Shown one piece after another: positions 575 through 44,477 of a stretch of DNA of 64,000 bases (positions are counted from its first letter, which is position 1; every line of letters begins with the position of its first letter). This stretch comes from Clostridia bacterium (GTDB taxonomy: Bacteria > Bacillota > Clostridia > HGM11514), in assembly GCA_045586685.1 (NCBI GenBank), contig JAZNAU010000032.1, positions 13,115 through 77,114 on the forward strand. Reading direction: 5' to 3'. Under the pieces are notes generated by a model. That model was not told the DNA's origin. It made no database searches and saw only the letters and a program-made list of their open reading frames with translations. The position numbers and the translations under genes are program-made.

Positions 575-3472
575 CTATTGTTTAAGCACCCTTTCGTCCC
601 GTACAATCCGGTATGCGAACACGCCCTTTTCATGTTCACCGTAATATTCCCAGTCTTCATAATACTTTTTTGTCCCGGTCTTCTCGTCACCGTAATGGGA
701 AGCATATATTTCGATGGCCCGGTTCATTATGCGGGCATATTTCTCCGCCTTGGACTTTTCCCCGCAACAGGCAATCCAATCTTCACAGAAACGGCTGATG
801 GCCGTCTCGTAATCCCTGTATTTCTTCAGGTATCGTTTCAACGCATCCTTTTCTATGCGTTCGGTGGTATATGCCATATACGACTGAGGAGATTCCTCCA
901 CACCGAACACGTCACCCTTGTTCCCGCGTCTGATATAGACTTCCTTGAAGAATCCTCTACCTGCCTTGTTGTCAAGCGTGTTTATAGTCCATATCTTCCG
1001 CTGTTCCACTTCCGACAGTCCGAGCATCCTTGCAATTTCTTCGTATCTTTCCTTGAACTTGGACTGGTCAAGCAAGATGGTAATGTCCGAGTTGTTGACG
1101 ATGGCTTCCTTCACGGTCGGGTTTGAAATGATGTCGTTGACTTCCTGCGTGACCACTCCCACGATACCCCAGAATTTTCTCACTGTCTTGTACAGGTAGA
1201 GGATATATCCTGCCATCATTGGCGAGGATATCGCTTTCCAGGCTTCTTCGATGATGAGTGCCTTACGGTTGCTTTTCAGTCTCATCTTCTGGATGAACAC
1301 GTCCATGATAATCAAGGTCACGATAGGGAAAAGGATGGGGTCATCCTTTATCGCATCGATTTCAAAAACAATAAAGGACTGGTCGAACAGTGAGCCTTCC
1401 ATATCCTTGTTCAGTGTCTTCTCGAACTTTCCACCCTTGTAGAACGCTCCCAGTAGATAGGAGAATTCCTTCATATTGAAGCTGATGCCTTTCGTATCGC
1501 AAAGGATCGGGATGTACCGGATGGAGAAGTCATAGAATGAGTTGAAGGACAGTTCCGTTACCTTGATGCTTTTCAGCCTGTCTTCAAGGATCTGTATCTG
1601 CCTGTCAATTTTCTGGTCTATCTTCTTCAGCTTGGCTTCTTTCGGGTCATCCAGTTCCGCACGGGTAAAGCCGTTTTCCGAGAGGATACGCTGTATCGCT
1701 GTAGTGGCGTTTATCTTTTCCCCTCCTTCCCCTTTTACTGCGAGCTGTTCCAGCTTCTTGACCTTATCGGCTATCTTCTTCCTTTCGGAGAGTTCCTCCT
1801 CCGACAATTCATAGCTTTCGTTGGAAAGCTGTAGGCTCATGAGTTCCTTCATCTCCTTGCGTTTCTCTTCGGTGTATCCTTGGAACGGAGTGAAGTAGAA
1901 GTCATAGTAAACCTTGATGGTCTCATCAATGATGCTGTCCTCCAGTTTGCTTACCGCACCGTTTGAACCTTTCCATATCAGGAGTATCAATGATTTCAGG
2001 AAGTTCTGCTTCTCGATGTTGTATTCCTCCCTGTTGATGTAGAAAGGATTCATCGTTATCGGGTTTTCTTCCGAGTAGGATATGTATGTACCCTTGAAAT
2101 ATTGGCACAGTGCCTCGTAGGAATTACCGGTGTCAATCATGACTACATCCGTCTTCTGCTCATGCATCTGTCTTACGACTGAATTCATATGGAATGACTT
2201 TCCGCTTCCGGAAGGTCCGAAACATACGAAGTTGGAGTTCTGTGTAAGCTTCAGTTCTCCTTCCTTCCCGGTGATGTCAATGAAGATGGGTACGCCCTGC
2301 CGGTCCGTATAGCTGATTTTAAGAGGTGTGTTTTCGGAAACCTTCATTCTTTCCTTGGTGAGAAAGCACACTGCTGCATCGTGCAGGCAAAGGAACTTGC
2401 TGTACGATTCAAGTGAAAAGGCGTTTCCGGGGAAATTGTTGATGAACAGTTCCAGTTGGTTGTAGGCGTTCTTGTTGATTGTAATGCCCTGGTCATAGAA
2501 CTGTTTCTCCAGATAATTGAATGCCTTTTCCATATGATGTTCATCGTTGTCTGTCACTATCATGACAGTAAAGTTCGTATAGACAAGCAGACGGTTCTCC
2601 ACAGCGATGTCATGGATGACGTTCTCGATATCCTTTGCGGCCAGCAGGTTTGCAGGATCCGGAAAATTCTTCTTGCGGTTCATGTTGGCATTCAGTTTGC
2701 CGTTCTCTTTCCGTTGGTTGGGAATGATGATGTTCTGCGTATATACGACGCATTCCGCTTCCGGTACCGTCCCCATAAATGAGAACAGGTCAACCGGCAG
2801 TCCCTTGTTCATGGAGAAAGGTTTTATCTGCGGTGGGAGCAGCACTTCGTCAATGTCCACCAAATCAATCATCTTGATAATCTTTTCTCCGCATTTCACA
2901 TGGTTGTCCATGTGCTTGAAATTGTTCAGTGAGAATTTTCCTTTCTTGAAGGAAACACCCAGGTATCTTTTGAGGTATTCCGTAATCTCCCTTGAGTCGA
3001 GGATATGGAAGGAAACCTTTTCCCCGATAAGTATATCCTGTATCTTCTGGAGTTTGTTCCAGAACTCGCCCCATTTCTTCTTGTCAAAGAGGTAGAAGGA
3101 GGAACGTTTCAGTTCCTGTGTGATGATGATGTAGCTTGTCAGTGCCGTATATTCCCTGCCTTCAAAATAGCTCATGTATGACCGGCTGAGGAACGGAGTG
3201 TTTTCAGGAAGTTCCGTGTGGAAACTCTGCTTGCAGAATATGTCCTGTTTCTGCAAGGCATAACCGTCGCCGAGTGTCTTCAGCAGACTGGTGTAAATTT
3301 CGCAAGCCTTGTAGTACGCATCAATATCCGCACAATACTGTTCTACCGGGTTGTCAATCCTGATAATGACGGAGAAATTGCCTTTGCGGGTATAGGCTAC
3401 CCCTACTCCCGGCATTTCGTCCTTTACTGCCTGGTACAGTCCGTCAAATTGTGTCTTCTTGTTCTTAGCCAT
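575..3472 (-). CDS. traG: TraG/VirB4-family conjugation ATPase
   Basis: 965 aa. Walker A GPSGSGKS, Walker B LIIEEAWK and YKTVRKFWG, typical of Bacteroidales TraG. Confidence 0.93.
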   Translation of the reverse strand: MAKNKKTQFDGLYQAVKDEMPGVGVAYTRKGNFSVIIRIDNPVEQYCADIDAYYKACEIYTSLLKTLGDGYALQKQDIFCKQSFHTELPENTPFLSRSYMSYFEGREYTALTSYIIITQELKRSSFYLFDKKKWGEFWNKLQKIQDILIGEKVSFHILDSREITEYLKRYLGVSFKKGKFSLNNFKHMDNHVKCGEKIIKMIDLVDIDEVLLPPQIKPFSMNKGLPVDLFSFMGTVPEAECVVYTQNIIIPNQRKENGKLNANMNRKKNFPDPANLLAAKDIENVIHDIAVENRLLVYTNFTVMIVTDNDEHHMEKAFNYLEKQFYDQGITINKNAYNQLELFINNFPGNAFSLESYSKFLCLHDAAVCFLTKERMKVSENTPLKISYTDRQGVPIFIDITGKEGELKLTQNSNFVCFGPSGSGKSFHMNSVVRQMHEQKTDVVMIDTGNSYEALCQYFKGTYISYSEENPITMNPFYINREEYNIEKQNFLKSLILLIWKGSNGAVSKLEDSIIDETIKVYYDFYFTPFQGYTEEKRKEMKELMSLQLSNESYELSEEELSERKKIADKVKKLEQLAVKGEGGEKINATTAIQRILSENGFTRAELDDPKEAKLKKIDQKIDRQIQILEDRLKSIKVTELSFNSFYDFSIRYIPILCDTKGISFNMKEFSYLLGAFYKGGKFEKTLNKDMEGSLFDQSFIVFEIDAIKDDPILFPIVTLIIMDVFIQKMRLKSNRKALIIEEAWKAISSPMMAGYILYLYKTVRKFWGIVGVVTQEVNDIISNPTVKEAIVNNSDITILLDQSKFKERYEEIARMLGLSEVEQRKIWTINTLDNKAGRGFFKEVYIRRGNKGDVFGVEESPQSYMAYTTERIEKDALKRYLKKYRDYETAISRFCEDWIACCGEKSKAEKYARIMNRAIEIYASHYGDEKTGTKKYYEDWEYYGEHEKGVFAYRIVRDERVLKQ

Positions 3473-12215: not shown

Positions 12216-12815
12216 ATGAAAATTGGATACGCACGAGTTAGTACAAAGGATCAAAATTTTGATTTGCAAATTTCAGCCTTAGAAAAGGCTGGATGTGAGA
12301 TTATCTATAAAGAAAAAAGAAGTGCCGTAAAGGATAGACCAGAATTAGAAAGAATGATGGAGTATCTTAGAAGTGGAGATATAGTCGTCGTTTGGAAACT
12401 TGATCGTTTGGCACGTTCATTGCAACATATTTTGTTCTTAATAGAAGAGTTGAAACGAAGAGATATAAGAATAATTAGTTTGTCTGAAGGAGTTGATACG
12501 GATACTCCTACAGGAAAATTCTTTTTGTCAATTACGGGTGCTTTTGCTGAATTAGAACGTAATTTGATTGTAGAGAGGACGCAGGCAGGATTACAGGCGG
12601 CCAGAGAGAGAGGGGTGAAATTAGGACGGAGAGAAGGTATTAGTGAAGAAAGAAAGGTTATAATGGAGGCAGCTTGTAATCTTTACAGGGATAGTGAAAT
12701 GACTACACCGGATATATGTGCATCATTGGGTATGTCTTCGGCAACTCTATATCGTTACCTTAAACTTTATGGGATAGCCAAAAAAAACAATCCGGGGAGA
12801 AGGAAAAAAAATTAA
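12216..12815 (+). CDS. Serine resolvase/invertase
   Basis: GYARVST, VVWKLDRLARS and a C-terminal HTH. Confidence 0.93.
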   Translation: MKIGYARVSTKDQNFDLQISALEKAGCEIIYKEKRSAVKDRPELERMMEYLRSGDIVVVWKLDRLARSLQHILFLIEELKRRDIRIISLSEGVDTDTPTGKFFLSITGAFAELERNLIVERTQAGLQAARERGVKLGRREGISEERKVIMEAACNLYRDSEMTTPDICASLGMSSATLYRYLKLYGIAKKNNPGRRKKN

Positions 12816-13960
12816 ACTTCTTCAAGGAATAGAATAGATGTTTGCGACATATCTTTTACAAGATTCTTAATGGTTGAATATACATATTTCCCCTTGTGAA
12901 TAACATTGCAATCAGGCTTTGCAAAGAATTCTACAAGTTGTGATATTTTTTCAAGTACAGGCAAATGGTTTTCTATTGTTATCAAATTGCTTATTTCAGT
13001 GGCCATCTTTTCATCCATTAAAATATAGCTACCTCGGAGAAGGTCGTTTACTTGGCGTTTCTTCAGTTCTAAGCCACCTTGCATTTGGCTACTTAAAGAA
13101 TATGTATTTATGATTTTAAAAACCAAGTTGTCAGGTTCACCTGCTTTACGTTTGCCTGGAGCATATTGTTTGTCATATTCAAAGTAGAAATCGGCTTTTC
13201 CGTTATGAGCCATTTCTTTCATCTCCTTTTGGGCTGGAACTATAACACGTTTAACAAAATCCTTAAATTCTGAATATGAATTTTCCAATCTTAGATACCT
13301 CCTTAATGATTCCATTTTTACAGTACAACCTCCTTCCTCTGCAAAAGCAGAAAGGTACAGACAGAATCGAGGAGTATATGCGTTAGTGGCTGATAAAATA
13401 GTATATTGTAAGAATTTGGTAAAACCGAATTCCATATTCAATAACATTGTAGCTGTTGTCTTTTTTATCTTTATGTAAACGTTATCTACACGCCCACTTT
13501 CTGGCAAGCGAACACTACATAAATTGTCAAATTCTCGCCATATTTTCTGATTTTTATCTCTTACAGGTATTTCCACCGGAATCGTTACTAACATTTTAAG
13601 AGCTTCTTTTAATTGTCTGTATTGATTCCTATGAACTCCAAAACTATTCATTGGTATCTTTAGCAAGATGGAACTTGGATCACTTTCATCAAGAAAGTCT
13701 GAAGAAGAGAATAATGTATTTTCAGTTGAGATTTTATTATAATGGTTGTATATAGCTTCCTGTATGTTTTCTTGTAATGCACCGATAATTCGGACAAAAA
13801 TTTTTGATTGAATAAGGGTGTAATTATACCGCATAAAAGTTACAGCGGTTGGTTGAACCAACCATACCAGTTCATTTTTATCTTGAGAAGGAAGCGGAAC
13901 AGGTAATGTCTGTCTTGATATTCTTCTTTTATTGCTATTATTACTGTTCAAGGAAGTCAT
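12812..13960 (-). CDS. Plasmid replication initiator (Rep_3/RepB family)
   Basis: 382 aa. GFTKF, LRRYLRLENSYSEFKDFVKRVIVPAQKEM. Iterons lie upstream. Confidence 0.85.
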   Translation of the reverse strand: MTSLNSNNSNKRRISRQTLPVPLPSQDKNELVWLVQPTAVTFMRYNYTLIQSKIFVRIIGALQENIQEAIYNHYNKISTENTLFSSSDFLDESDPSSILLKIPMNSFGVHRNQYRQLKEALKMLVTIPVEIPVRDKNQKIWREFDNLCSVRLPESGRVDNVYIKIKKTTATMLLNMEFGFTKFLQYTILSATNAYTPRFCLYLSAFAEEGGCTVKMESLRRYLRLENSYSEFKDFVKRVIVPAQKEMKEMAHNGKADFYFEYDKQYAPGKRKAGEPDNLVFKIINTYSLSSQMQGGLELKKRQVNDLLRGSYILMDEKMATEISNLITIENHLPVLEKISQLVEFFAKPDCNVIHKGKYVYSTIKNLVKDMSQTSILFLEEV

Positions 13961-15195: not shown

Positions 15196-15582
15196 ATGAC
15201 GGAGAAAAAGAACAAAACCAGGCAGTTACATATAAGACTTACGGAAGAACAGGAAAAGCTTATAAAATCGAAGGCTGTTAATTATCCCACTCTATCAGGA
15301 TATATATTGGATGCAGCTCTTCATTTTGATGATAAGAATGGAATACGAAAATTAGAGGTTATAGAATCTTGGGCTTCAGAATATCAAAAATGGAAAAATG
15401 ACATCTCTCATTTGGCTTCCAATATCAATCAGTTGGCTCATTATTGTAACCAATGTAAAGCTAATGGTATTTTAAACAATTCCGTTGTCGAGGAAAACAA
15501 TAAGTTGATGAAGGAGTGGAATAATATTTCCGGTAAGATAGTTGAATTTCAAAAATGGCTTGTTAGGTTTGCTAAAAAATAA
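15196..15582 (+). CDS. mobC: Relaxosome accessory protein MobC
   Basis: RHH-like LHIRLTEEQ and the SNINQLAH motif. Confidence 0.85.
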   Translation: MTEKKNKTRQLHIRLTEEQEKLIKSKAVNYPTLSGYILDAALHFDDKNGIRKLEVIESWASEYQKWKNDISHLASNINQLAHYCNQCKANGILNNSVVEENNKLMKEWNNISGKIVEFQKWLVRFAKK

Positions 15583-15701
15583 TTTTATATATTTATGATT
15601 ATATAAGTATAGATATTTATGGATATATAGTTTTATAATTATAGAAATATATAATTATATATATTTTTAAATGTATATAGAAATAATTATATAAGTATAA
15701 A

Positions 15702-17252
15702 ATGATTGTTCGAATTCTGAAGGGTTCAAGTTCTTTTTCTGCCGTGGGTTATAATGAAGAGCGGGTTAAGAATGGTGAAGGACAGTTGCTATGTTCCAAT
15801 AATTTTGGTTCAACTGCAGATGTTCTATTTACTAAACCGTCAGATTATAAAAATTACTTAAAGGATTGGAGTAGCAGAAATAGTAGGATAAAATCACCAC
15901 AGTTACATGTTACAATATCATGTAAAGACAAATCTTATAATCCTGAAGAACTTAAAGAAATTGGGATAAAGTGGTTAGAAAAAATGGGGTATGGTTCTAA
16001 TCCTTATATGATTTATTTTCATTCTAACACAAAGAATAACCATATTCACATCATAACTTCAAGAATAGATGGACAGGGAAGAAAAATCAATGATAGTTAT
16101 GAAAAAGAAAGATCAGTGAGAATACTGGATAGCATTATTGGTTTGGATAGATATGATTTGCTTAGGAAGGAAATAGCTAAAGCTTTAAAATATTCGTATA
16201 CATCAGAAAAACAATTTTGTCTTATTCTTGAAAGTAGAGGATTCCGTGTATTTGATAGTGGTAAGAGTCTTAAAATATTATCTGGCGGAGAAAATGTAGA
16301 AATTGATAAAGAGTTAATAAATTTCTGCATGAACAAATACAGACATGAACTTACGAAACAGGAAAAGAGTAAATTATATGCTTTGATAAAGAAATACTCA
16401 ACAATTCTTCCCAAAGATGAATTTTCTGAATTTATGAAAATGAAATTTGGACTTAATTTCATATATATGGGTAAGAAAGACAGTCCTTATGGTTATTGTA
16501 TCGTTGATGACGCTAATAAGCGAGTCTATAAAGGAAGTGAAATCTGTTCTTTAAAATTATTGCTTTCCAATCTTGAACGCAATAAGGAAATCGATGTGGA
16601 AATAGAAGTGTTGCTTAAAGATTATTTTTACAGAAACAGATATGCAAATTCAAAGGAACTAAATCATATGTTAGGCAAATATAGAATGAAATATTATGAT
16701 GGGAAGATTATCAATAAATATACTAAGGAAACTAAACTGGTAATGCCAAGAGCTTTCAATGAATTTATAGCTTATAATAATAAACTGCGTTATGTTAGTA
16801 ATGTATATAATCCTCAAACAAATGGTGAATATGAATATTTGAGTAAAAGATTTGTTATCAAAATAGAAGATTTAAAAAGAATTGGTTGTAAATCTTCTGT
16901 TAATGATAACTCTTATTATAAAGAATTGATTGAGGAAATATTAAAACTAAATGGAAATCTAAGAGATGAATTGAACTCTTTAGGTATTAGTGTCAGAAAA
17001 ATCGGGCAGGAATTTATTTTTATCGACGATGATAGGGATGTTGTTTACAGCAATGAAAGAATAGGTCTTAATTATTCTTTGTTAGAAGAATCGATGACTT
17101 TAGATGTGCCTGTAAGATTCTACGATAACGATGAATTTGCTACCAATAATAATGAAGAACTCATAGGTGTAATAGATTCATTGAGTGATATGATATATGT
17201 TAATACATCAATGGGTGGTGGTGATAATCCTAAAAAACGACGGAGGAGATAA
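15702..17252 (+). CDS. MOBP-type relaxase
   Basis: AVGYN (catalytic Tyr), HVTISC, HSNTKNNHIHIITSRI. Basic C-terminus KKRRRR. Confidence 0.9.
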   Translation: MIVRILKGSSSFSAVGYNEERVKNGEGQLLCSNNFGSTADVLFTKPSDYKNYLKDWSSRNSRIKSPQLHVTISCKDKSYNPEELKEIGIKWLEKMGYGSNPYMIYFHSNTKNNHIHIITSRIDGQGRKINDSYEKERSVRILDSIIGLDRYDLLRKEIAKALKYSYTSEKQFCLILESRGFRVFDSGKSLKILSGGENVEIDKELINFCMNKYRHELTKQEKSKLYALIKKYSTILPKDEFSEFMKMKFGLNFIYMGKKDSPYGYCIVDDANKRVYKGSEICSLKLLLSNLERNKEIDVEIEVLLKDYFYRNRYANSKELNHMLGKYRMKYYDGKIINKYTKETKLVMPRAFNEFIAYNNKLRYVSNVYNPQTNGEYEYLSKRFVIKIEDLKRIGCKSSVNDNSYYKELIEEILKLNGNLRDELNSLGISVRKIGQEFIFIDDDRDVVYSNERIGLNYSLLEESMTLDVPVRFYDNDEFATNNNEELIGVIDSLSDMIYVNTSMGGGDNPKKRRRR

Positions 17253-17325
17253 TTATAAATGTTTATAAATATATAGTTTTAGATTTATATATTGATATGT
17301 TTATAGAAATTTATTTTCATTATTA

Positions 17326-17357
17326 TTTGGTAGTATTATTTATTATCCTTACATTTG
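17326..17357 (+). promoter_or_regulatory. Class-2 promoter
   Basis: TTTG-GTAGTATTATTTATTATCCT-TACATTTG upstream of the lipoprotein-parA operon. Confidence 0.7.
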
Positions 17358-17396
17358 CAAAAAATAATAATTGTTTCACTTATTAAATGTAGATTT

Positions 17397-17861
17397 ATGA
17401 AAAAATTAATTTGGGTAGTAATGGCTGCCATTTTAAGTTTTGGTGTTGTGTCTTGTTCCAGTTCTGATGATGACCCCACAGAACAAGTTTCCAAAAACAA
17501 GGGAATCTTTAAAGTTGTGGTAACTCAAACAGGTGAATTGGATAAATTTGTTTTTTCTTCTTCTGTGAATGGGGGGGATGCTGCAAAAACGGGAATTTTT
17601 GAAAGTGGTACTTCTAAGGATTTAGGAATGGCTTATCAGTTAACCGATGCTGAAGCTTGTAGAAATACCTATTCTTATCAAACAGACAAAAATGGAATGT
17701 TGCTGATGGCAACAGTTGGTGTCTATGCAAAAGATGGATATGAGGATAAAAAGATAACTATAAATATGAAATTGTATCTTGACAATAAAATGTTGGGTGA
17801 AAAGGAAGAAACTTTTTCAGAAGGAGTTATCCAGATAAATTCTCATGATTATGTAAACTAA
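17397..17861 (+). CDS. Lipoprotein of unknown function
   Basis: MKKLIWVVMAAILSFGVVSC lipobox. Confidence 0.75.
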   Translation: MKKLIWVVMAAILSFGVVSCSSSDDDPTEQVSKNKGIFKVVVTQTGELDKFVFSSSVNGGDAAKTGIFESGTSKDLGMAYQLTDAEACRNTYSYQTDKNGMLLMATVGVYAKDGYEDKKITINMKLYLDNKMLGEKEETFSEGVIQINSHDYVN

Positions 17862-17872
17862 ATAATAGAATT

Positions 17873-18550
17873 ATGCCTGTCATTGTATTTGCTAATCAAA
17901 AAGGAGGGGTAGGAAAATCTACTCTTGCTATAATGTATGCCAATCATCTTTCTGGTGTCAAAAATAAAAGGGTGACTGTTTGGGAAACTGATGTCCAGAA
18001 GAGTATTTATGAACAAAGGAAGGATGATGAATTGACTTGGGGAAAGGAAAATATGAAATATGACGTTCATTACATACAATTAGATACTCTTCAAAATTCT
18101 GAAGCAATGATGGTAGAAGCCAAAGAGGTCTATAAAGATGATATTGTCATTATTGATGTTCCTGGTAATATAACTGATAATTATATTGCTCCTTTGTTGA
18201 TTTATGCGGATTTTATTATTTGCCCATATATGTATGAAACAAAAGTTCTTCAAAGTACAACAACATTTATTAAAGTTTTGAAGAAATTGAAGAAGATGTT
18301 TCCAGAAGTGATGAATCCTAAGATTCTTTATGTTCCTAATAATATCGATCCGAGAGAAGGTACAACAAAAGAACTTGAACAGCGAATGCAGGTTGATGAT
18401 ATATTCAGAAAGAATGGTGGTGGAGAAGTTTTGCCTAAAATTCATCAGCGTGCCGATGTTAAGAGATTAAATACATATATGAATACTCAAAAGCAGGAAT
18501 ACATAAGTTCTGCATGCTTTTCTCAACTCGATAAACATATTTTAGAATAA
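17873..18550 (+). CDS. parA: ParA-family partition ATPase
   Basis: Deviant Walker A NQKGGVGKST and IIDVPG. Confidence 0.9.
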   Translation: MPVIVFANQKGGVGKSTLAIMYANHLSGVKNKRVTVWETDVQKSIYEQRKDDELTWGKENMKYDVHYIQLDTLQNSEAMMVEAKEVYKDDIVIIDVPGNITDNYIAPLLIYADFIICPYMYETKVLQSTTTFIKVLKKLKKMFPEVMNPKILYVPNNIDPREGTTKELEQRMQVDDIFRKNGGGEVLPKIHQRADVKRLNTYMNTQKQEYISSACFSQLDKHILE

Positions 18551-20822: not shown

Positions 20823-20824
20823 TT

Positions 20825-21496
20825 TCAGAGATACTTTGCTATTGTATCCACCACTTTGTCTATTGTAGATAAAGAATCAGGAAGGTCTTCATCTATCCAG
20901 TTTAACAATTCCATTATTTTATCGTGCATTCCTGAAGCATAAGATAAATTCTTTCTACCATTGACAAAGCAGATGGGTTCATTATGATTTATTCTATTTC
21001 TGAATTCTCTAATCTCAATTATCCTTTTGTTGATATCGGTACGATCAATGTTTGCAGGTTTATTCTTAAATATGGATAAAGGAATACCGGATAAGACGGC
21101 ATATGGTTTCTTCTCAAACATGCTATTCCAGAATCCAAGATTCTGTTCTGCAATTATTCTTCCATGAGTGATTGCTATACCATTGTCTGTAAGTTTCTTT
21201 TCCGCCTTTGTTACTTCTCCTTTCATCCAATATTTGCTTCCAAGCCTACGGTCTTGCATGAACCCGTTCTTTTGATTGATAATCCATTCCTTATCATTAA
21301 AGTGAGCTGCTAAAGCATAGTGAAGTTGATTTCTCAAAATAACTTCAAATGAACCGAGGAGAGGATGAAAAGCCTGTGCCAATTCTAAATTGGCCTGATA
21401 TAATTCCATAGCTCTTTGTTTGTTTTTTCCTACAGCCCGGAAATATTTGTTTATTCTTTGATAAGAATAAAATCTTATAAATTTTCTGTAATTCAT
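20825..21496 (-). CDS. Abi-like (AbiD/AbiF family) HEPN nuclease
   Basis: FEVILRN, GFWNSMF and the RxxxxH motif RNRINHNEPI. Start taken at MNYRKF. Confidence 0.8.
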   Translation of the reverse strand: MNYRKFIRFYSYQRINKYFRAVGKNKQRAMELYQANLELAQAFHPLLGSFEVILRNQLHYALAAHFNDKEWIINQKNGFMQDRRLGSKYWMKGEVTKAEKKLTDNGIAITHGRIIAEQNLGFWNSMFEKKPYAVLSGIPLSIFKNKPANIDRTDINKRIIEIREFRNRINHNEPICFVNGRKNLSYASGMHDKIMELLNWIDEDLPDSLSTIDKVVDTIAKYL

Positions 21497-21530
21497 TGTT
21501 TTTCCAAAAAATATTCCTACCTTTGTACCG

Positions 21531-21610
21531 TAATGCTTGGTTCCTCCTCTGTTATCAAGACATGAAACCAAGTTCAGGATATACCCATTCCATCAAGGAG
21601 TGGGTTTTTT
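21531..21610 (+). ncRNA. Candidate ~80-nt small RNA opposite the Abi leader
   Basis: -7 box TACCTTTG at 21518-21525, stem CTTGGTT/AACCAAG and terminator ACCCATTCC/GGAGTGGGT plus T-run. Confidence 0.5.
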
Positions 21611-35600: not shown

Positions 35601-38111
35601 GAACCTTTCGTTGTATGTATCTGCCAAAGCGTCCTTTGTCCTTACATCCCTTGCATCAAGCCATTCTATGAACCTTTCCTGCATATCCTGTATCTTGCTT
35701 GCCGCCAGTTGCGTAGCTTCCGCATCCACTTCCTTTGTTTTTTCATTTCCCTTATAGACTGTTTTCGTTATTTGCGGGAATGTATTGTACATGGCATTCA
35801 GCATTATGTCTTCCGCCGCCAGTTTCCATTCCACACCCCAAAGAGATTGGGCAGCGGATGAATATTCTTTCATCTTCACTGTAAACGTGTCCTGTCCGGT
35901 AAAATATTCTATTTTTGTCGGCACCTTGAATATTTCCGTTGCAAAATCAGAATAGATGTCACATGAAATCCATCTTTCGCCAAAATTGAAGTCCAGTTCC
36001 TCGAAGGGGATTTTTTCAGGCTTCCCTTCTTCCAGTGCTTTCAAAGAGTTTTCTATGTCTTCCTTATAATTTTCGCAGTATTCATCCATCAGGAAAGGTT
36101 TGAACTGATTTATCTTTTCATAGACATTCCCTGCAATCATTCTGCTTCTGATTTCCCATTCATCTTCTACCGGATTATATAGAATCCTGTCTTTTAATGC
36201 ATTGAGAATTTCTTCTTCGCTTTTCTTTGAATAATGTCCTATATATGTCAAATCAACTTTTCCGTTGAAGTTTAGCGAAGCTGCCAACGCTTCTTCAACG
36301 GTCATGGTTTCTTCTTCCTTGTTTTTACGGAATGAGACTGGTTCAGAAAAGATATCTGCCTTTATTCTCTTTCCGTTTTCGTATCTCTCAAGTGCAAGAA
36401 TTTCATCCGCCGCTGGATCCATCATGATAACAGGAGCAGCCTGTTTCTCTCTGAGACCACCGTATCTTTCCACAAAAGAATCATAGGCATCATTCAGCAT
36501 ATGACGGAATCCCTCGTTTTCTATCTGATGTTCATGTTCAAAATCGAAAAGTTCCCAGTATTTGTTCCGGATGGCAATATAGGATGAAAGGATATTTCTC
36601 TCGATAAGTGATATTCTTTCATGTGGGTTAAACATATATTTCCCGTTTTCGATGGAAAGTGTACCGACCTGTCCTTCATAATTTACGGTTATGCCGGTTT
36701 GATAATGGTTACTCCACCATGTGCCGTTGAATTCTCTTTTTCCTGTATTGCTTTGTAAAGGTACAGTATTCTGTTTCCTTTTCCTCTTTCCTGTTCCCTT
36801 AATCTGTGTTCTTTCTTCCGCTGTCAGTCCGAAAAGGTCAAAAAGAGACAGGATTTCCCCTCCAAGCACGTTCTTTGTGTCATCTTCTTTCCTTTCATTG
36901 CTTACCTTAACCCGATTCAGTAATTCTTTCTTGTATTTTTCCTTGAAGTCCCTATCAACAATATCTTTCAATTCATCAGCAATAATCACATCACAAGGGT
37001 CAAACTTAACAGTTATTTTTCCGAATCTGTCTGTAGTTTCATAAGGGTCACCTATATAGTTCGGGTAGTCCACCGGTGAAAACAGATAATCACCATTGAT
37101 ATATCTGTTTTGTGAAATCATACCGTAAATTCCTTCCTGCCCGTTTTCAAATTTCCGTACGTCCCATTCCCTTGTTTCCGTGAACATTCTCTCCTTTTCT
37201 GACATTCCATTTTTCCGGCTGTTCTTCTGAAGAATAATCAGGTCACTTCCTACTTCCACACCTGCTTCGGATTCAAACAGATTATCAGGTAGTCTGACAG
37301 CGGAAACAAGATTGGAATTTTGCATGAGATATTCCCTTATGGGTTTGTTCATCTTTGCATCCGCCAAACCTCTTGATGTTATGAATACAATCAGACCTCC
37401 TTCCTTTACGGCGTCCAGAGCTTTAACAAAAAAATAGTTGTGTATTTTAAGGGTAGAAGATTTCTTCACCTTGTCCTTTGAATTGGATAGTATCGGATCA
37501 AACACCCGGAAATCTCCGAAAGGGATATTTGATATGGCGAGGTCATATTTACCCATATCTGCAGCAGGTATAGTCTCGAACCCGGCTATATTAACTTTTG
37601 TTTCCGGTTCAAGGGATGTAAGTATGAGTCCTGTCAGTATATCTTTTTCATAAGCAGTCTTTTCCAACTTGTCCGCCGTTTCGGTTCCATCGAACGCATG
37701 AAGGAATCTTCCTGTTCCTGATGATGGATCTATCATGGTCTGTATTGCTCCAGGTGCTGCCTTTGATAGAATTTCTCCCAAAGTCTTGATGAAATATTCA
37801 GGAGTATAGAAAGCTGTAAGAACGGATGATTTTACACTTTCCATATATTCTTTTCTTTCTCTGTCGTCCTTCGTGTTTACTCCAATGATACGATTCAGCT
37901 CCACAACGGCAGGGTAAAGGGATTGGTCTTCTTTGCTCCAGTCTTTCACAGGTCTGGTGTCTATGACACATTTCAGCCCACCGAATCCGGTATATTTCTT
38001 TAGGATCTCCCGTTCCTCTTCATTTGCTTTCCTATTTTCCGCTTTAAGTTCAAAAGCTTTCTGTATAGCATGTATGTTAGCTATGAGTGCGGTTTTCTTA
38101 TTGTAGGCCAT
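32607..38111 (-). CDS. N6-methylase / SNF2 helicase fusion (DarB-like)
   Basis: 1834 aa. [43 protein letters not shown]. Confidence 0.9.
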
Positions 38112-38520
38112 ATTTTTCCAGATAAAGTTTGATAGAACCGGTAATGAGATAATAAAGTTTCATGTAATTGACACTATCCTGAAATTCGTCATCAATGTCC
38201 GGAAACTTCTTGAATTCCTCTTTGGTATATTCCATCATCTGCATGATGAATTCATGTTTCTCGTAGTCATTTATATCAAATTCTTCTTCTACAATTTCCT
38301 TCACCAAATCATAGGCTGAGAATTTCAAGTCTTTATAAAGGACAATTAAGGCTTCACGCTTCGCTTCATTAACATTCATGCCCATGTGCGAACAACGCTC
38401 GAATTCATCTTCAGCCAGTCCGCTTCTTGCATTGATGAATTCCGTGTCTTCAATTTTATCCGGGTGGTGCTGCACCATAAAATCCGTCAATACCAGTTTG
38501 AAATAAGATAGATGTTCCAT
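38098..38520 (-). CDS. DUF1896-like protein
   Basis: LSYFKL.L..FM..HHPDK..D.EFI..R. Sits upstream of the methylase/helicase, the usual position for this family. Confidence 0.75.
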
Positions 38521-39973
38521 TTGATTTTCTTTTTTTGTTTCTCCGCACAAAGAAAGCCCGGTTGGTTATCAAAAAAGGCACTTCTTCCTTTAATTTTTGA
38601 TGTTCCAATGACGGCATGATTCCGTAAAGTTCAAAATACACAAAATCATACAGTCTTTTCCTGCTAAGGAAAGGCTTGTATTCGTTTCTTTTCCGGAACT
38701 GTTCATGATACCTTCTCATGGTTATCTTCCAAGCGTACTGATGTTGTTTTTCCATTATCTTTCGGATGGAAGTGACTTTGGACAGGTCTTCTTCTATATG
38801 GAAGAAGAATTTCACTCTCGGATGCCGTTCTATCATGTTCCGGATATACTTCCTTGCGTTGAAGTGCTTGAGCATACCGAGATAAGAGTTTATCCTGCTT
38901 ACATAATCCTCTATCTTGTGGGTGTGCTTCATATAGTCGGGAAGCTCGTCAATATCCCGTAATACCCGACGGAACCCGCCACGAATTCTTTTTCCTGGTA
39001 ATAACGCCTTTCCCTTGATGATTGCACCCAAGAACGGGATTCCCTGTTTGTAATGCAACACCCTAATCTTGTCGGGATGGAGTACAAGACCCATTGATTT
39101 GAGGAATTCCTTTAACACCTTTACGATGTTCAGAAGAAATTCCTTGCTCTCATGAACGATGTAGAAATCATCCACATATCTGCCATAGAATCTTAACATG
39201 CTCTTGCAGAAATGGTCGAAAGGAGAGAGGTAGAAGTTACCGAGCATCTGTGAAGGCAATGCACCGATGGTAAGACCTTTCTTGTTGACATCCATATCCG
39301 CTGTATATTCACCGTCATAATCGCATGGTTTGGGTGCTCCGCAACACGAGAATACGGATTTGTTGTCAGGGAGCTCCCTCCATAATTTCCTGTTTCCACG
39401 AATCACTACATTGTTCAGCGGTGAATTGAACAGGAACACATGAAGCTGCCATAGCAACTTTTCCTTGTCATTATTGTGGTACTTTTCTTCCACGAACGCT
39501 TTCAGTTTCTCCCAAAGATTTCCACGGACTATACTCATGAAATAACCTTTGATGTCACCAAGAAGGATATAACAATCCTTTGTGAAATTGGCGGAGCATT
39601 GGGCAATGAACCTCTGCAATCGTTTGATACCGAAAAGGGTTCCCTTCCCCTTACGGCAGGAATAGCAGTCGTATATGAATTCCTTTTCAAAGAGAGGTTC
39701 CAACTTTTCAGATACGAAATGCTGGTCCACACGGTCCTTGAAATCCGGTGCGAAAATTTCACGAAGTACGGGTTTTGTAATAAGAAAGGTACGTGCCGGT
39801 AATGGGGCGTATGTTTCTGTTAGCAGTTCATTCCTCAGTTTTGGTAGAGCGGTCGTTATATGGAATGAAAATTCCTGTTCCTGTAGGGTGTTGCGTTTCC
39901 GCTTCCTGCAAGAACAATATCCATGATACAGTTCACCCATATCAACATCTGACTTCCGGATAGATTTAGCCAT
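38456..39973 (-). CDS. DGR reverse transcriptase
   Basis: REIFAPDFKDRV, YSCRKGKG, DIKGYFMSI, GLTIGALPSQ (DGR-type SQ motif) and YGRYVDDF. Adjacent to TR and avd. Confidence 0.95.
   Translation of the reverse strand: MAKSIRKSDVDMGELYHGYCSCRKRKRNTLQEQEFSFHITTALPKLRNELLTETYAPLPARTFLITKPVLREIFAPDFKDRVDQHFVSEKLEPLFEKEFIYDCYSCRKGKGTLFGIKRLQRFIAQCSANFTKDCYILLGDIKGYFMSIVRGNLWEKLKAFVEEKYHNNDKEKLLWQLHVFLFNSPLNNVVIRGNRKLWRELPDNKSVFSCCGAPKPCDYDGEYTADMDVNKKGLTIGALPSQMLGNFYLSPFDHFCKSMLRFYGRYVDDFYIVHESKEFLLNIVKVLKEFLKSMGLVLHPDKIRVLHYKQGIPFLGAIIKGKALLPGKRIRGGFRRVLRDIDELPDYMKHTHKIEDYVSRINSYLGMLKHFNARKYIRNMIERHPRVKFFFHIEEDLSKVTSIRKIMEKQHQYAWKITMRRYHEQFRKRNEYKPFLSRKRLYDFVYFELYGIMPSLEHQKLKEEVPFLITNRAFFVRRNKKRKSNGTSILFQTGIDGFYGAAPPG
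38548..38583 (-). promoter_or_regulatory. Class-1 promoter motif inside the RT 3' end
   Basis: AAGTGCC-TTTTTT-GATAAC-N13-TTTG, 28 bp before the DUF1896 ATG. Confidence 0.65.
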
Positions 39974-39997
39974 ATTGTCATTGATAGTATCTCCATA

Positions 39998-40122
39998 TCC
40001 CGCACGAACCGAACCCGATTGTTGTTGTTCTTATTGTTGTTGTTCACGTTGCCATTGTTGAAGTTCACGTTCCAGCCGTTGTTGGAAGAGTACTCTGAAC
40101 TACTCCAATAGTTGTTGGACGC
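39998..40122 (-). ncRNA. DGR template repeat (TR)
   Basis: 125 bp ungapped match to 41208-41332, with 17 AAC/AAT codons. Lies between avd and RT. Confidence 0.95.
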
Positions 40123-40247
40123 CAACCTTATCCTTTTATCCCGTGGGAAGGCTTCTTCCCAATCGTCTGTTAACCGGTCATCAGACCGGTAGATAAGCGA
40201 CATAAAGATACTAATTATCTTATTATTTACCTTTCGCTCTTTACCAG

Positions 40248-40619
40248 TTACCCTTCTGTAACCGGCACTTTAGCGGTCTTGTTTCTGAATCCGTTAATTT
40301 GTCTCTCTACGGAATCCAGTCTTTCCAATATGGCAGGGAAATCCTTATGCTGGAATAGTCCGAGTTGATGAGCTACATCCACCAATGTTTTCAACTCCGT
40401 CAGGTGTTCCATGAATACATCGAAAAAAGCCATTTTCTTTTCATAAATATCTTCTGTATATATATGGTAAAAATCCATAGGTAGATGGAGTGCTGAAGAT
40501 GTGATTCTTTCACCGAAAGTATATCGGTACTGGCGTGATGTCTTACCCATTGCTCTTTCTATCTCTGCTGTCAGTTCCACGGTCTGACGGTATAGAGGAA
40601 GTGAATTATATTGTCCCAT
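40248..40619 (-). CDS. avd: DGR accessory variability determinant (Avd, four-helix bundle)
   Basis: 123 aa. LPLYR..YRYTFGERI..QINGFR, directly upstream of the TR. Confidence 0.85.
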   Translation of the reverse strand: MGQYNSLPLYRQTVELTAEIERAMGKTSRQYRYTFGERITSSALHLPMDFYHIYTEDIYEKKMAFFDVFMEHLTELKTLVDVAHQLGLFQHKDFPAILERLDSVERQINGFRNKTAKVPVTEG

Positions 40620-40620
40620 A

Positions 40621-41094
40621 TCATTTCAACATATTCTGCCAATCGTTAATAAGCGTAATTGCTGCAACTGGTGTGAGTGTACCCAAATTCAGTTTCTTTA
40701 GCTGTTCGATAACTTCCTTTTCCCTATTGTTATTGGAAACGGTTATCACTTCATTCTTTCTCTTTCCTCCGCTTTTTTTGATGACATGGACATTCGTAAT
40801 ATCTTCAAGAGTTGTTTTTATTTCGTCACATTCAATCTCGATGTATTTTTTGAATTCTCCATTTTCATCTTTCAATGTAATGTTTTCAAGCATGGACGAA
40901 TTCTGAACGATACCGATACGGAGATACCAATCTCCGTTTTTCAGTTCATGTTTGAGAAAAACGACACTGCCGTTTATAAAATGACTGAAGCGTACAGCGG
41001 AATGGTTGTACGCTACATAGAAGATACCTTCTCTATAAAGTCGGATGATCTTTTCACCCGACTTTTCTAATGCTAATTTTTCTTTGACTTCCAT
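40621..41094 (-). CDS. MutS-like DGR accessory protein
   Basis: IRLYREGIFYVAYNHSA (MutS domain I-like) and LNLGTLTPVAAITLI (MutS C-terminal-like). Confidence 0.7.
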   Translation of the reverse strand: MEVKEKLALEKSGEKIIRLYREGIFYVAYNHSAVRFSHFINGSVVFLKHELKNGDWYLRIGIVQNSSMLENITLKDENGEFKKYIEIECDEIKTTLEDITNVHVIKKSGGKRKNEVITVSNNNREKEVIEQLKKLNLGTLTPVAAITLINDWQNMLK

Positions 41095-41155
41095 TGTTTT
41101 TTGCTGTTTGACAGCCTATATTTATTTTCTGACAATCATATTGCTTTTCTGACGA

Positions 41156-41179
41156 ACCCTGCCCCGAAAAGGGCAGGGT
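41156..41179. other. GC-rich hairpin downstream of the VR (IMH-associated or terminator)
   Basis: ACCCTGCCC-CGAAAA-GGGCAGGGT, a perfect 9-bp stem about 22 bp after the target stop. Confidence 0.75.
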
Positions 41180-41200
41180 ATTTATAAAGAAACTAAAGAT

Positions 41201-43318
41201 TTAAAAGTCCCGCACGAACCGAACCCGATTGGTGTCGAGCTTACAGTAGCCGTCCACGCGGCCACTGCCGAAGCTCACGCGCCAGCCGTCGTCGGAAGAG
41301 TACTCTGAACTACTCCAATAGTAGTTGGACGCTATTGTCTGACCTCCAATGGCAGTGAGAGCAGTGTTGATGGCAGTCATGTTAAGGAACATTAGGGAAA
41401 GCTGACCACACGCAGGGATGTACCAGTCTGTGTAACCTCCATTTTCTTCATTGTTAGCATCATTGAATTTATTCAGGAGGATACCCATTGGTGCATAACT
41501 CTTGTTGCTGCTTGTACCATTGGTAGTAATTGTTTTTATGACATCAGAATTTGCCTTGCCATTAAAGTCTGACAATGCTCCGCTTGTCCATGTTGTGTAG
41601 TCCCCGGAAAGGTTTGGTGTAGAACTATAGCTACCATTAGCCTGTGGCAAGTAACCATAAGAATTAGAAGCATCTGCTTTATTATATGTTGGAATACCGG
41701 TCTGGTCTGTGCCGTAACCGCCCCAATAAAGATAAGTGTAACCAGTATTTGTTGCACCGAATTCATTGTAAGCAGCCTTATATGTCTCTGTATTCTTCGT
41801 CTCGTTCTTTTCAATCCAGAACTTATGTTCACCGACAACCAATGCCACTGCAATGCACGATTCATCAGCATTGGCAACATCAATCAACGCTCCTGAAGAT
41901 GAAACTGCGTAAACTCCTGCTGTCGCAACTACCGGAATATCTTCTACACCGTCAAATGTTACAGTATAAGCTGTTGTTTGATTTTTGATTGTGATTGTTC
42001 TGACACCAGTCTCACTGTTCAATGATTGGGTCATTGTTGCAGAACCGCTACCGCTAACTTCTTTTACTCGTTTTCCTTCAACAGTAGGGGTAGCAGTGAT
42101 TGTTACCGTACCGTCTGCCGCTACGGATTTAGTTACGGTCATACCGGATTGGTCACCAGCTAATACGAGTTGGTAACTTGTACCTGCAAAGTTTACGGTT
42201 ACGTTGGACTGAAGGCTACTTACTGTAACTGTTCGGATTCCGCTTGTTGCATCGATGGATTGTGAAACGGTTGCAGTACCTTCATAGCTGACTTCATTTA
42301 CGGGTTTGCCATAGACGAATGGCACAGCTTTGATCGTTAATGTTGTACCGCTGACAGTATTGGCCAAAGCTATATCTGTAAGGTTTCCGGCAATGGTCAC
42401 TTTATATCCGAGATCAATTACCGGATTACCTGATTCGTTGTAACCCCAATCGCCTACGGTTACACCTGACAATTCAAGGCTTGTTGAATTGACGGTAACA
42501 GTGTATTTATAGATATTGCTTTTGGATAGTGTCAGGGCATCGGTCGTAACGGAATATGTCTTTCCATCAATAACTACTTTCAGAGTCAGAGCTGCGTTTG
42601 TTCCTGTTGGAACCACAATAACATCGGCATTCTGTTCGGTTGTTGTAAGCGAAATGCCTTTGGTCACAGATATTTCATTTCCACTGCCGGTAAAATTACT
42701 GAGTGTCCCGGTCTTGGAATTCATGGTAGCTCCTGTAGCTGCAGCTGTACTTGTTACGGATACGGAAGTAACTGTACCTGTTCCTGTATATGTTCCTTTC
42801 TTCAAGGCGAAACGGATGGCAGAAAGAGCATGATTCATGGTTATATCCACTTCTGATTCCGCATCATATACACCGGTTACTTCTGTAGCATACATATAGT
42901 CAGTCTGTGTGCCAGTTTCAACCGGAACTGCTGTAATGTCGGTTACGCTTGAAGAGTATGGATAATATGCATATACATTACCCGGAGTGGCTGAAAGTAG
43001 GATATTACTGCTCCCTGTCCAAGTCTGAGAGGTTGTACCATCAGCTGTAAACTTGATGTTAGAATAAGTCTTCCCGTCATAATCGTTGCCGTCAGAGGCA
43101 AGTAAGGTTACCCCTATTTCGCTGTTGTCCGGTAAGTAGGTTTCTTCAATCAATGCCCTCGAAGCCGTAATTGCGGATGTATTGACATTGAGTTTCAACT
43201 GGTTTTGGGAACTGGTCAGTTCATTCAACTGTCCCTCCTGGTCTGAAGTGCAAGCCGTAAAAGTATAATTCACGACAGTCATTGCCATAATAAAGGCATA
43301 GAAAAATAACTTTCTCAT
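41201..43318 (-). CDS. DGR target: fimbrillin lipoprotein with C-terminal variable (C-lectin/DUF1566-like) domain
   Basis: Lipobox FTAC, fimbrillin domain, Thr-rich beta repeats, then WYIPACGQL, YWSSSE and RVRFVRDF. Confidence 0.92.
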   Translation of the reverse strand: MRKLFFYAFIMAMTVVNYTFTACTSDQEGQLNELTSSQNQLKLNVNTSAITASRALIEETYLPDNSEIGVTLLASDGNDYDGKTYSNIKFTADGTTSQTWTGSSNILLSATPGNVYAYYPYSSSVTDITAVPVETGTQTDYMYATEVTGVYDAESEVDITMNHALSAIRFALKKGTYTGTGTVTSVSVTSTAAATGATMNSKTGTLSNFTGSGNEISVTKGISLTTTEQNADVIVVPTGTNAALTLKVVIDGKTYSVTTDALTLSKSNIYKYTVTVNSTSLELSGVTVGDWGYNESGNPVIDLGYKVTIAGNLTDIALANTVSGTTLTIKAVPFVYGKPVNEVSYEGTATVSQSIDATSGIRTVTVSSLQSNVTVNFAGTSYQLVLAGDQSGMTVTKSVAADGTVTITATPTVEGKRVKEVSGSGSATMTQSLNSETGVRTITIKNQTTAYTVTFDGVEDIPVVATAGVYAVSSSGALIDVANADESCIAVALVVGEHKFWIEKNETKNTETYKAAYNEFGATNTGYTYLYWGGYGTDQTGIPTYNKADASNSYGYLPQANGSYSSTPNLSGDYTTWTSGALSDFNGKANSDVIKTITTNGTSSNKSYAPMGILLNKFNDANNEENGGYTDWYIPACGQLSLMFLNMTAINTALTAIGGQTIASNYYWSSSEYSSDDGWRVSFGSGRVDGYCKLDTNRVRFVRDF
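41208..41332 (-). repeat. DGR variable repeat (VR)
   Basis: 21 mismatches to the TR, all at TR adenines (13 A>G, 4 A>C, 4 A>T). Confidence 0.96.
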
Positions 43319-44380: not shown

Positions 44381-44405
44381 ATTATTATAAATATTACGTT
44401 TATAG

Positions 44406-44477
44406 TACTCCGAAGGGGAATCGAACCCCTATTGAGCGTTTAGGAAACGCTTGTTCTATCCGTTGAACTATCGGAGC
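44406..44477 (-). tRNA. tRNA-Arg (anticodon CCT)
   Basis: Acceptor stem GCTCCGA/TCGGAGT, D-arm, anticodon arm AGCGT-TTCCTAA-ACGCT and T-arm GGGGTTCGATTCCCC. CCA is not encoded. Confidence 0.93.

Follow-up and report, generated by a model that had tools for sequence, protein, structure and literature searches.

Diversity-generating retroelements (DGRs) with an MSL accessory gene were described by Wu et al. (2018; PMC5758913), who found this gene in 16 of 372 elements, always together with avd, and who placed 6 of the 372 elements on plasmids. The same survey describes variable proteins of the DUF1566 type with fimbrial extensions, and it reports that the DUF1566 target of Legionella is an outer-membrane lipoprotein. 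In a more recent preprint (Macadangdang et al., 2024; 10.1101/2024.11.15.621889), DGRs of Bacteroides that contain Avd and Msl are reported to diversify type V pili at their tips; 70% of the elements in this pilin group are assigned to prophages, 13% to integrative and conjugative elements (ICEs) and 17% to cellular loci, the structure 4EPS is identified as the tip pilin BovFim1C, and the variable proteins BfrT and BthT are presented as three-domain hybrid pilins. The element analyzed here lies at positions 38456..43318 of a 64,000-nt stretch of DNA (the window, in which all positions are counted unless stated otherwise) that constitutes the last 64 kb of the 77,114-nt contig JAZNAU010000032.1 (C32) of assembly GCA_045586685.1, filed as a Clostridia bacterium. 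We consider it very probable that this element is a functional, Msl-containing DGR of the DUF1566/CLec2 class, and that its carrier is a conjugative plasmid, circular and about 77-79 kb in size, which, judged by its gene content, belongs to ruminant-gut Bacteroidota.

The class as such is not new, which the initial annotation of the window had already stated with respect to Bacteroides, and members of it are described in both publications. As far as the preprint describes them, the Bacteroides pilin DGRs resemble the present element in having Msl and Avd (an Avd-like protein in the window), a C-terminal variable repeat (VR) within a C-type-lectin head, a conjugative carrier and a 4EPS-like head, and their template repeats (TRs) contain 30-45 adenines, compared with 43 in the window. 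By their published description, BfrT and BthT moreover share a lipoprotein signal, a pilin-like N-terminal domain and a connecting domain with the target protein described below. Unlike those elements, which are described from prophages, ICEs or cellular loci, the element of the window is carried by a Rep3/ParA plasmid, its target gene, instead of terminating a pilus operon, lies about 30 kb from the fimbrial operon of the plasmid, and it stems from the ruminant gut. The Legionella DGR and the other Architecture D elements of Wu et al. are, in the published description, similar in the combination of Msl with avd (an avd-like gene in the window), in the DUF1566 VR, in the lipoprotein nature of the target and in a GC-rich inverted repeat past the VR, whereas they differ in that the Legionella element belongs to another phylum and in that the target of the window additionally contains a fimbrillin module and two repeat domains. 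Gene content and predicted structures thus place the element among the MSL-type DGRs (Architecture D of Wu et al., 2018), with a MutS similarity that is remote. With the BPP-1 DGR (mtd-avd-TR-brt) it shares the adenine-specific mutagenesis, the order avd-TR-reverse transcriptase (RT), with an avd-like gene in the window, a C-terminal C-type-lectin VR, and a GC-rich end resembling an initiation of mutagenic homing (IMH) site with a downstream hairpin, but BPP-1 has no Msl and its target is a phage tail-fibre protein. As the tails of VR and TR are identical in the window, there is no distinct IMH*, again unlike BPP-1, and the absence of a distinct IMH* has been reported for some other DGRs (PMC5758913).

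The TR (39998..40122, minus strand, as are all parts of the element) comprises 125 nt with 43 adenines and 17 AAY codons, and the VR (41208..41332), likewise 125 nt long, covers codons 663-704 of the target gene, i.e. its last 42 codons. Both align without gaps over all 125 columns, their similarity ends sharply at both edges, and all 21 mismatches fall on TR adenines (T on the plus strand), for which the chance probability is about 3e-12 if 21 mismatches were placed randomly in a TR with 43 adenines in 125 nt. The substitutions are A->G in 13 cases, A->T in 4 and A->C in 4, and 15 of the 17 AAY codons are altered at the amino-acid level. Of the 43 TR adenines, 34 occupy the first two positions of the AAY codons, each of which can be converted into a codon for any of 15 residues and never into a stop, and the sole A-bearing codon that could become a stop is a single AAG. 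The AAY codons alone permit 15^17 = 9.85e19 variants, and with the 9 other adenines the ceiling rises to 1.3e24 proteins or 7.7e25 DNA sequences. At the 3' end of the VR, a GC-rich tail of 20 nt (41208..41227) is the same as in the TR, its final base being its one A, and resembles the IMH-like 3' boundary of mutagenesis; the lowest variable place among the listed variants from sequencing runs, 41229, lies outside this tail. A second VR or RT was not found in the genome to which the contig is assigned.

Along the minus strand, the order is target, hairpin, Msl, Avd-like protein, TR and RT. The RT (38456..39973, 505 aa) starts 24 nt past the TR, matches RVT_1 with an E-value of 3.8e-18, and contains YVDD at residue 266 as well as IGALPSQ at residue 236, which corresponds to the IGxxxSQ motif that we take to be a signature of DGR RTs. 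It is 40-46% identical to RTs that adjoin TR/VR pairs in other loci and at most 46% identical to the RTs found in 32 of 401 sampled Bacteroidales genomes; its best plasmid-borne relative in PLSDB is a Legionella plasmid RT with 41% identity. The 123-aa protein encoded at 40248..40619 is a predicted four-helix bundle that reaches 24.9 bits with TIGR02436 (cut-off 24), and the position of its open reading frame (ORF) ahead of the TR fits Avd. Two comparisons speak against a firm assignment, as the protein stays below the thresholds of the dedicated profiles bAvd (E 1.9e-4, 22.3 bits, cut-off 40) and DivGenRetAVD (E 8.9e-5, 22.8 bits, cut-off 80); 23S_rRNA_IVP also matches under its cut-off (E 5.2e-5). 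We therefore speak of an Avd-like protein. Between target and Msl, a hairpin (41156..41179) with a G+C-rich stem of 10 bp and a loop of 4 nt begins 28 nt past the VR end. Read from 41179 to 41156, it has a predicted energy of -11.9 kcal/mol (z -2.74), only 1 of 200 shuffled sequences being as good, and it is unchanged in a 95% identical relative (L002) although its flanks differ there. No T-run follows the hairpin, and it was not among the terminator-like sites of our scan; it is a candidate target-recognition cruciform. The scan for promoters and terminators gave no more sites than shuffled sequences did, and the Rfam search near the cassette yielded a tRNA only. The initial annotation, which was made from the letters alone, had described the element as a complete DGR with this gene order, at bounds that coincide with RT stop and target start, with the same TR and VR coordinates, gap-free alignment and mismatch pattern, and with about 10^20 variants from 15^17; the recomputed alignment reproduced every count, the TR reading frame gave the peptides that had been quoted for the 15 changed Asn codons, and the order and bounds agree with the ORF and hairpin coordinates, whereby the completeness rests on the RT match with its two motifs and on the TIGR02436 match.

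The RT shows one peculiarity. Its last approximately 100 residues (about 405-505; 38456-38760) have no counterpart in the RT matches from the 401 Bacteroidales genomes, most of which stop by residue 410 or so, the longest at residue 432. This C-terminal tail overlaps the start of the next ORF, a DUF1896 gene (38098-38550), by up to 95 nt, and it stays open in L002.

Has the VR indeed been rewritten? Three independent lines, namely the locus L001, the sequencing runs and L002, bear on this question. Over a length of 10.6 kb, L001 shares 98.7% identity with the window; the TR region (39950-40250) is the same in both, and the VR of L001 differs from the TR at 14 positions, all of which are A, and from the VR of the window at 21 positions, all of which are TR-A positions. 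The cassette stretch 39900-42400 was found in 18 sequencing runs from 10 studies, all of animal gut, at shares of 0.76-0.87 and never 1. For 4 of these runs, from 4 studies, assembled contigs were compared with the window. Their flanks are more than 99% identical, with only 2-4 differing letters per approximately 1.1 kb in the Msl-avd flank, whereas 19 of 162 and 23 of 168 letters differ in contigs over the VR. The 23 variant places taken from the best-supported rows of the variant table, beyond which stand 71 more rows, lie between 41229 and 41292, and 23 of 23 coincide with a TR adenine, although only 31 of the 64 positions in this interval are TR-A; the chance of this is below 1e-7. In total, 5 distinct VR versions occur in the 4 runs, and one run (X9) contains two VR contigs with different letters. 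Breaks in the contigs of the runs fall on the TR (40015/40083) and the VR (41184-41320), and in one run (X1) no contig extends over the VR core. The L002 contig breaks off within the VR, and the tails of TR and VR in it share two substitutions relative to the window, which is expected if the end of the TR is copied into the VR. The VR has evidently been rewritten recently and repeatedly. The initial annotation had named a monomorphic VR across populations, together with no tag transfer, as a sign of an inactive element; across copies and samples the VR is polymorphic, and at A sites only. What tempers this conclusion is the nature of the population data, which consist of assembled contigs that drop rare variants, and the rate of rewriting and its present activity in any given cell line can only be inferred. 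An exact-pattern scan with the VR 3' end and the sequence downstream of it found 0 stretches in either of the two collections, metagenome_contigs and viral_contigs.

Just upstream of the VR, at 41351-41388, the window and L001 differ at 12 of 38 nt, which changes 3 residues, and the replacement GGC>CTT at 41351-41353 recurs in the runs X1, X2 and X9. As this patch has no TR homology and is not A-specific, it was not made by the DGR, and it may be a recombination tract.

The target protein (41201..43318, 705 aa) begins with a lipoprotein-type signal with Cys23 and has a candidate processing site at Arg54. Residues 62-291 match Mfa_like_1 with an E-value of 6.5e-35 over profile positions 8-246 of 246, and in the PDB this module finds the Bacteroides fimbrillin-like chains 3t2l (E 3e-4) and 3ufi (E 6e-4). 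Residues 1-301 are 40% identical to the whole of a 306-aa fimbrillin (6405-7325) that belongs to an Mfa-type fimbrial operon of the same plasmid (3996..11003, minus strand; three Mfa_like_1 genes together with DUF3575 and DUF5119 genes). Two tandem repeats of about 72 aa follow (309-380 and 386-458; score 131 versus 35 +/- 6.5 for shuffled sequences), and the C-terminus matches Lcl_C (DUF1566) with an E-value of 3.8e-8 at 34.1 bits, just under the cut-off of 34.9. A profile of 30 homologues of the C-terminal part retrieves the Lcl C-terminal domain 8q4e with an E-value of 5.7e-23 and the B. ovatus fimbrial protein 4EPS with an E-value of 1e-6 (chain positions 426-505). For the structure prediction, only the C-terminal 251 residues were modelled, with the misaligned rows L056, L064 and L074 left out of the alignment; whole-target MAFFT alignments were discarded, as they stretched partial homologues across the entire protein. 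With the modelled head, VIA-align ranks 4EPS first (Z 11.3, root-mean-square deviation (rmsd) 2.9 A over 138 residues, chain 298-534), before Lcl (8.1), a Bdellovibrio C-terminal domain (7.2), InvE, C-type lectins (4-6) and FGE, and Foldseek agrees. These matches assign the target to the CLec2/DUF1566 class of DGR variable proteins, with the VR inside a predicted C-type-lectin-like domain.

The initial annotation had called the target a pilus-tip protein and had proposed a structure model of the tip domain. By homology, a pilus-tip adhesin is indeed a well-founded reading, as the Mfa_like_1 N-terminus is combined with a head that is closest to 4EPS, and the model supports the 4EPS-like fold, but it did not serve to place the variable residues on a surface. 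Some observations run counter to the pilus-tip reading. The mean predicted local distance difference test (pLDDT) value of the AlphaFold model for residues 455-705 is merely 52.3, with 60-82 for the last approximately 125 residues, and model residues 1-126 are unusable. The target gene also lies outside any fimbrial operon, being preceded by two small ORFs of unknown function and a tRNA-Arg gene, and about 30 kb separate it from the fimbrial operon of the plasmid. Because of this location, incorporation into a pilus is presumed. The tRNA-Arg gene (anticodon CCT; 44405-44477, minus strand; Rfam 64.2 bits, also detected by ARAGORN) lies about 1.1 kb upstream of the target. Another protein with a weak Lcl_C/DUF1566 match (221 aa, E 4.2e-5) is encoded in the tra operon just before the window (contig positions 4419-5084, minus strand), and it is not a second DGR target, since it has no TR-like sequence.

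Msl (40621..41094, 157 aa) had been given the label "MutS-like" from the letters alone. This label holds up, though with weaker support. Only 18 relatives at E <= 1e-3 were found among 1.84 billion representative proteins, and an alignment of 17 rows has the invariant residues E10, G23, F25, Y29, S32, A33 and G61. A profile of this family finds E. coli MutS in the PDB with an E-value of 0.012 in two colinear pieces, and MutS or Msh2 accounts for 11 of the 12 chains listed. Msl residues 4-68 align with MutS 15-77, i.e. with domain I, and residues 83-157 with the C-terminal helices at MutS 783-851; Phe25 of Msl pairs with Phe36 of MutS, and Val27 is found where MutS has Glu38. The AlphaFold model has a mean pLDDT of 85.6, and its top Foldseek match is MutS (E 0.018, probability 0.99, with no match at E <= 0.001). 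All of the first 40 rows in VIA-align belong to MutS/MSH, with Z-scores of 3.8-4.6, and the first unrelated row is at 2.1; the superpositions of Msl 1-85 on MutS 12-94 comprise 68-79 residues with an rmsd of 3.4-4.0 A and 21-23% identity. In the nearest ESM-Atlas clusters, 14-28% of the members carry MutS_I. It has to be weighed against this that the similarity is modest in both the sequence profile (E 0.012) and the structural comparison (Z 4.6), and that Pfam MutS_I does not match Msl even at E <= 10. We accept a remote but consistent MutS similarity on the basis of profiles and models. The order VR-Msl-TR-RT is found in 3 of 4 distant Msl-bearing loci examined, and Msl occurs in 6 of 32 related loci. 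A prediction of a two-copy complex gave 0.15 and 0.18 (mark 0.42), which is no evidence either way on self-association. The plasmid also encodes an 867-aa polyvalent protein (53472-56075, minus strand) with ArdC-N, a zincin metallopeptidase domain, MutS_I (E 2.9e-16) and LPD11, so that Msl is not its only protein with similarity to MutS domain I, the two being unrelated; a BLASTP comparison of them was not significant (E 0.16).

The carrier had been taken for a conjugative plasmid, which is borne out by several features. It encodes a Rep3-family replication initiator (12812..13960, minus strand), a NikA-like protein, a MobA/VirD2 relaxase and ParA for transfer initiation and partition (15196..18550, plus strand), and a TraG (VirB4-type) conjugation ATPase (575..3472, minus strand) that is 52% identical to those of pBF9343-like Bacteroidales plasmids. 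In the 13 kb before the window, the contig encodes a coupling protein, TraN (DUF4138), TraM and a TrbL-like protein, and a DUF4134 gene is present as well. None of the 4 PF00589 matches of the genome, i.e. no tyrosine integrase, lies on the contig, whose recombinases are two small serine resolvases. A related contig of 79,332 nt (G003:C120) has target residues 1-664 at its start and the VR 3' end at its other end, and thus represents one circle that is cut at the VR. Contig positions 305-54342 match 24680-79332 of this relative, and 54835-77114 match 401-25214, so that the two contigs are colinear circular permutations and each bridges the ends of the other. An objection is that the contig has no exact terminal overlap. 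Over 538 nt, its ends (contig 1-839 and 76580-77114, the latter being 63466-64000 of the window) resemble each other at 86% identity, and for the first 304 nt the related plasmid has no counterpart; the ends probably belong to a strain-variable stretch, by which the assembler was kept from closing the circle. Since circular permutation is combined with Rep3, ParA, relaxase and Tra genes and with no integrase, the carrier is, as read from its genes and arrangement, a circular conjugative plasmid. It belongs to a lineage absent from PLSDB, in which a megablast search with the 4.9-kb cassette found no match. The closest backbone is that of the pBF9343-like Bacteroidales plasmids, with the identity of TraG given above and 28-33% within the Rep family. 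A 98-kb Bacteroidales plasmid, pMMCAT (10.1101/2024.04.29.590671), resembles it in having an Mfa-type fimbrial operon, but the main text on pMMCAT never names a DGR, a reverse transcriptase or a retroelement, and, in this comparison, no exopolysaccharide (EPS) locus was seen on the plasmid of the window.

All relatives of the Rep protein in PLSDB (42 of 42 records) come from nine genera with 28-33% identity, the best being 33%. Two of these genera were checked in the taxonomy as Bacteroidota, and the remaining ones we take to be Bacteroidota, too. Nevertheless, the contig was binned into a metagenome-assembled genome (MAG) of the Clostridia type (1.55 Mb, 97.4% complete, 0.03% contaminated, with Spo0A and without SusD), and two near relatives are contained in MAGs titled Clostridia and Lachnospiraceae. 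Because of these assignments, a Bacteroidota host is deduced and not observed. The contig is, however, an outlier in this bin. Shine-Dalgarno motifs precede only 19 of its 68 long ORFs (28%), compared with 759 of 1192 (64%) on the other contigs (p 9e-9), its tetranucleotide correlation with the rest is 0.859, whereas all other 25 contigs of at least 20 kb have at least 0.968, and the Bacteroidota promoter-like motif TAnnTTTG is found upstream of 19% of its ORFs versus 9% elsewhere (p 0.017). All 4 Mfa-like genes of the genome lie on this contig, and the cassette is present in 0 of 11 genomes of the same family; two other genomes among 60 relatives gave only 40-nt AAC-rich matches to the cassette, which were rejected as chance matches. 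In view of its outlying composition and Shine-Dalgarno usage, and of the purely Bacteroidota relatives of its replication and transfer proteins, the contig is most likely a Bacteroidota plasmid that was mis-binned three times. The three Clostridia-class MAGs (1.55, 2.9 and 2.9 Mb) stem from independent assemblies, and their agreement reflects either a systematic mis-binning or an unexplained co-abundance.

How does such an element most likely function? By analogy to the established DGR mechanism, which is the source for the RNA intermediate, for the priming, for the Avd-RT complex and for what hairpin and tail do, the avd-TR-RT unit would be transcribed, and the RT, together with Avd, would copy the TR RNA into cDNA with misincorporation opposite the 43 template adenines. 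This cDNA would then replace the last 125 nt of the target gene, whose recipient end would be marked by the 20-nt GC-rich tail and the downstream hairpin. The diversified residues would come to lie in the C-type-lectin-like head, which is joined to the fimbrillin module via the two repeat domains. Because this head is fused to a module that is paralogous to the subunit of the plasmid's own Mfa-type operon, the most likely product is a lipoprotein at the cell surface, which sits at the tip of a type V pilus and serves as an evolvable adhesin. Msl would be a mini-MutS with a domain I-like fold and C-terminal MutS-like helices that probably acts on the mismatch-rich heteroduplex of cDNA and VR. 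What Msl does, where on the pilus the protein would sit and what it would bind are hypothetical. A further step is tentative and, in our opinion, rather unlikely to be correct in all its parts: the plasmid might represent a self-contained evolvable attachment organelle, in which the orphan pilin caps the plasmid's own Mfa fimbria in competition with its 40% identical paralogue, and in which Msl shields the retrohoming intermediate from host mismatch repair. If this were true, a conjugative plasmid, and not a chromosome, phage or ICE, would keep retuning the adhesion of its host, be it to recipient cells, in mating aggregates or to biofilm partners.

What alternatives exist for a functional, pilus-associated DGR on a Bacteroidota plasmid? 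One possible, if somewhat doubtful, alternative is that the target is a lipoprotein adhesin that is either free at the surface or periplasmic, with a fimbrillin-like N-terminus that has lost the ability to polymerize. The isolated position of the gene behind two small ORFs and a tRNA, some 30 kb from the fimbrial operon, would suit such a protein, and there are precedents in the Legionella target (PMC5758913) and in the preprint of Macadangdang et al. (10.1101/2024.11.15.621889), in which 2 of the 5 pilin-like variable proteins under study are reported from the periplasm instead of pili. The periplasmic BovT and BfiT of Bacteroides, which are comparable examples, are described there as having no pilin-like N-terminal domain, whereas the target of the window does have one; its fimbrillin module is complete (8-246 of 246 profile positions) and 40% identical along the whole operon fimbrillin, and the nearest relative of its head, 4EPS, is a tip pilin according to the same preprint. 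Pilus association thus remains our preferred reading for the target. A DGR that is intact but silent, with the VRs being old alleles that became fixed in separate plasmid lineages, is quite unlikely. It could be invoked because the comparison comprises consensus contigs with no RNA runs among them, because some Bacteroides DGRs are tightly controlled (10.1101/2024.11.15.621889), and because the promoter scan did not rise above shuffled sequences. Old alleles are difficult to reconcile, however, with copies that are 98.7% identical and have identical TRs but differ at 21 VR sites, with 5 VR versions on flanks of more than 99% identity, two of them within one run, and with assemblies that break at the VR in L002 and X1. 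Moreover, none of the four ORFs is interrupted in the window or in L001, and matches to Msl, TR and RT are present in L002, too, the contig of which breaks off within the VR.

With regard to the carrier, it is improbable that an ICE or a genomic island was caught as an excised circle. Such an element would be in line with the cargo, which includes DUF1896, the large methylase-helicase, DUF3945/DUF4099 and a topoisomerase, a set that is typical of Bacteroides conjugative transposons, and with the fact that the contig is not closed by an exact overlap. In addition, the mobile pilin-group DGRs of Bacteroides are found on prophages (70% of the group) and ICEs (13%) in the preprint cited above. Against an ICE stand the Rep3 initiator, with relatives on Bacteroidota plasmids only, and ParA, as well as two small serine resolvases as the only recombinases and no tyrosine integrase, and no chromosomal flank appears in 77 or 79 kb, the two contigs being circularly permuted such that each spans the ends of the other. 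We therefore retain an autonomous plasmid. Highly improbable, finally, is a plasmid that truly resides in Clostridia, with a Bacteroidota-style pilus and a DGR at work in a Firmicute. The high completeness and low contamination of the bin, the presence of Spo0A and the absence of SusD, and the two near-identical relatives in MAGs titled Clostridia and Lachnospiraceae are what such a host would predict. Type V pili need an outer membrane, though, and the Shine-Dalgarno frequency (28% versus 64%) and the tetranucleotide correlation (0.859 versus at least 0.968) set the contig apart from its bin, as do the four Mfa-like genes, all of which it carries. The DGR is present in none of the 11 same-family relatives, Bacteroidota account for 42 of the 42 records with a Rep relative, and among the TraG matches listed the best full-length ones all come from Bacteroidales plasmids.

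What is new here is modest: an autonomous plasmid that carries the element, its occurrence in the ruminant gut, an orphan target gene 30 kb from a paralogous operon, and an RT of at most 46% identity to those of the sampled Bacteroidales genomes. In the literature covered, which did not include the supplements of the preprints, we found no description of this plasmid or of a plasmid-borne pilin DGR. Pilin-diversifying DGRs are thereby extended beyond the chromosomes, prophages and ICEs of human-gut Bacteroides: the carrier is an autonomous conjugative plasmid, the habitat includes ruminant guts (18 runs from 10 studies), and the target is separated from its presumed pilus operon. The system provides a clean natural case in which two questions can be asked, namely what the function of Msl is and how a mobile element that bears a DGR gains from variable adhesion. 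There are also two practical aspects. Where a VR is hypervariable, short-read assemblies come apart exactly at the repeat, and in the present case it was such a break that helped to reveal the circular plasmid. The binning into Clostridia MAGs in three independent assemblies, on the other hand, is a warning for the assignment of DGR hosts in MAG surveys.

Some further genes of the plasmid may be mentioned. Directly downstream of the DGR, after the DUF1896 gene, follows a gene for a protein of 1834 aa in which an Eco57I-type N6 methylase is joined to an SNF2/DEAD helicase (32607-38111, minus strand). The cargo further includes an Abi_2 protein encoded beside a serine resolvase (20172-21571, minus strand), and a HipA-like kinase with a helix-turn-helix (HTH) partner, which form a pair of the toxin-antitoxin type (58512-60426, minus strand).

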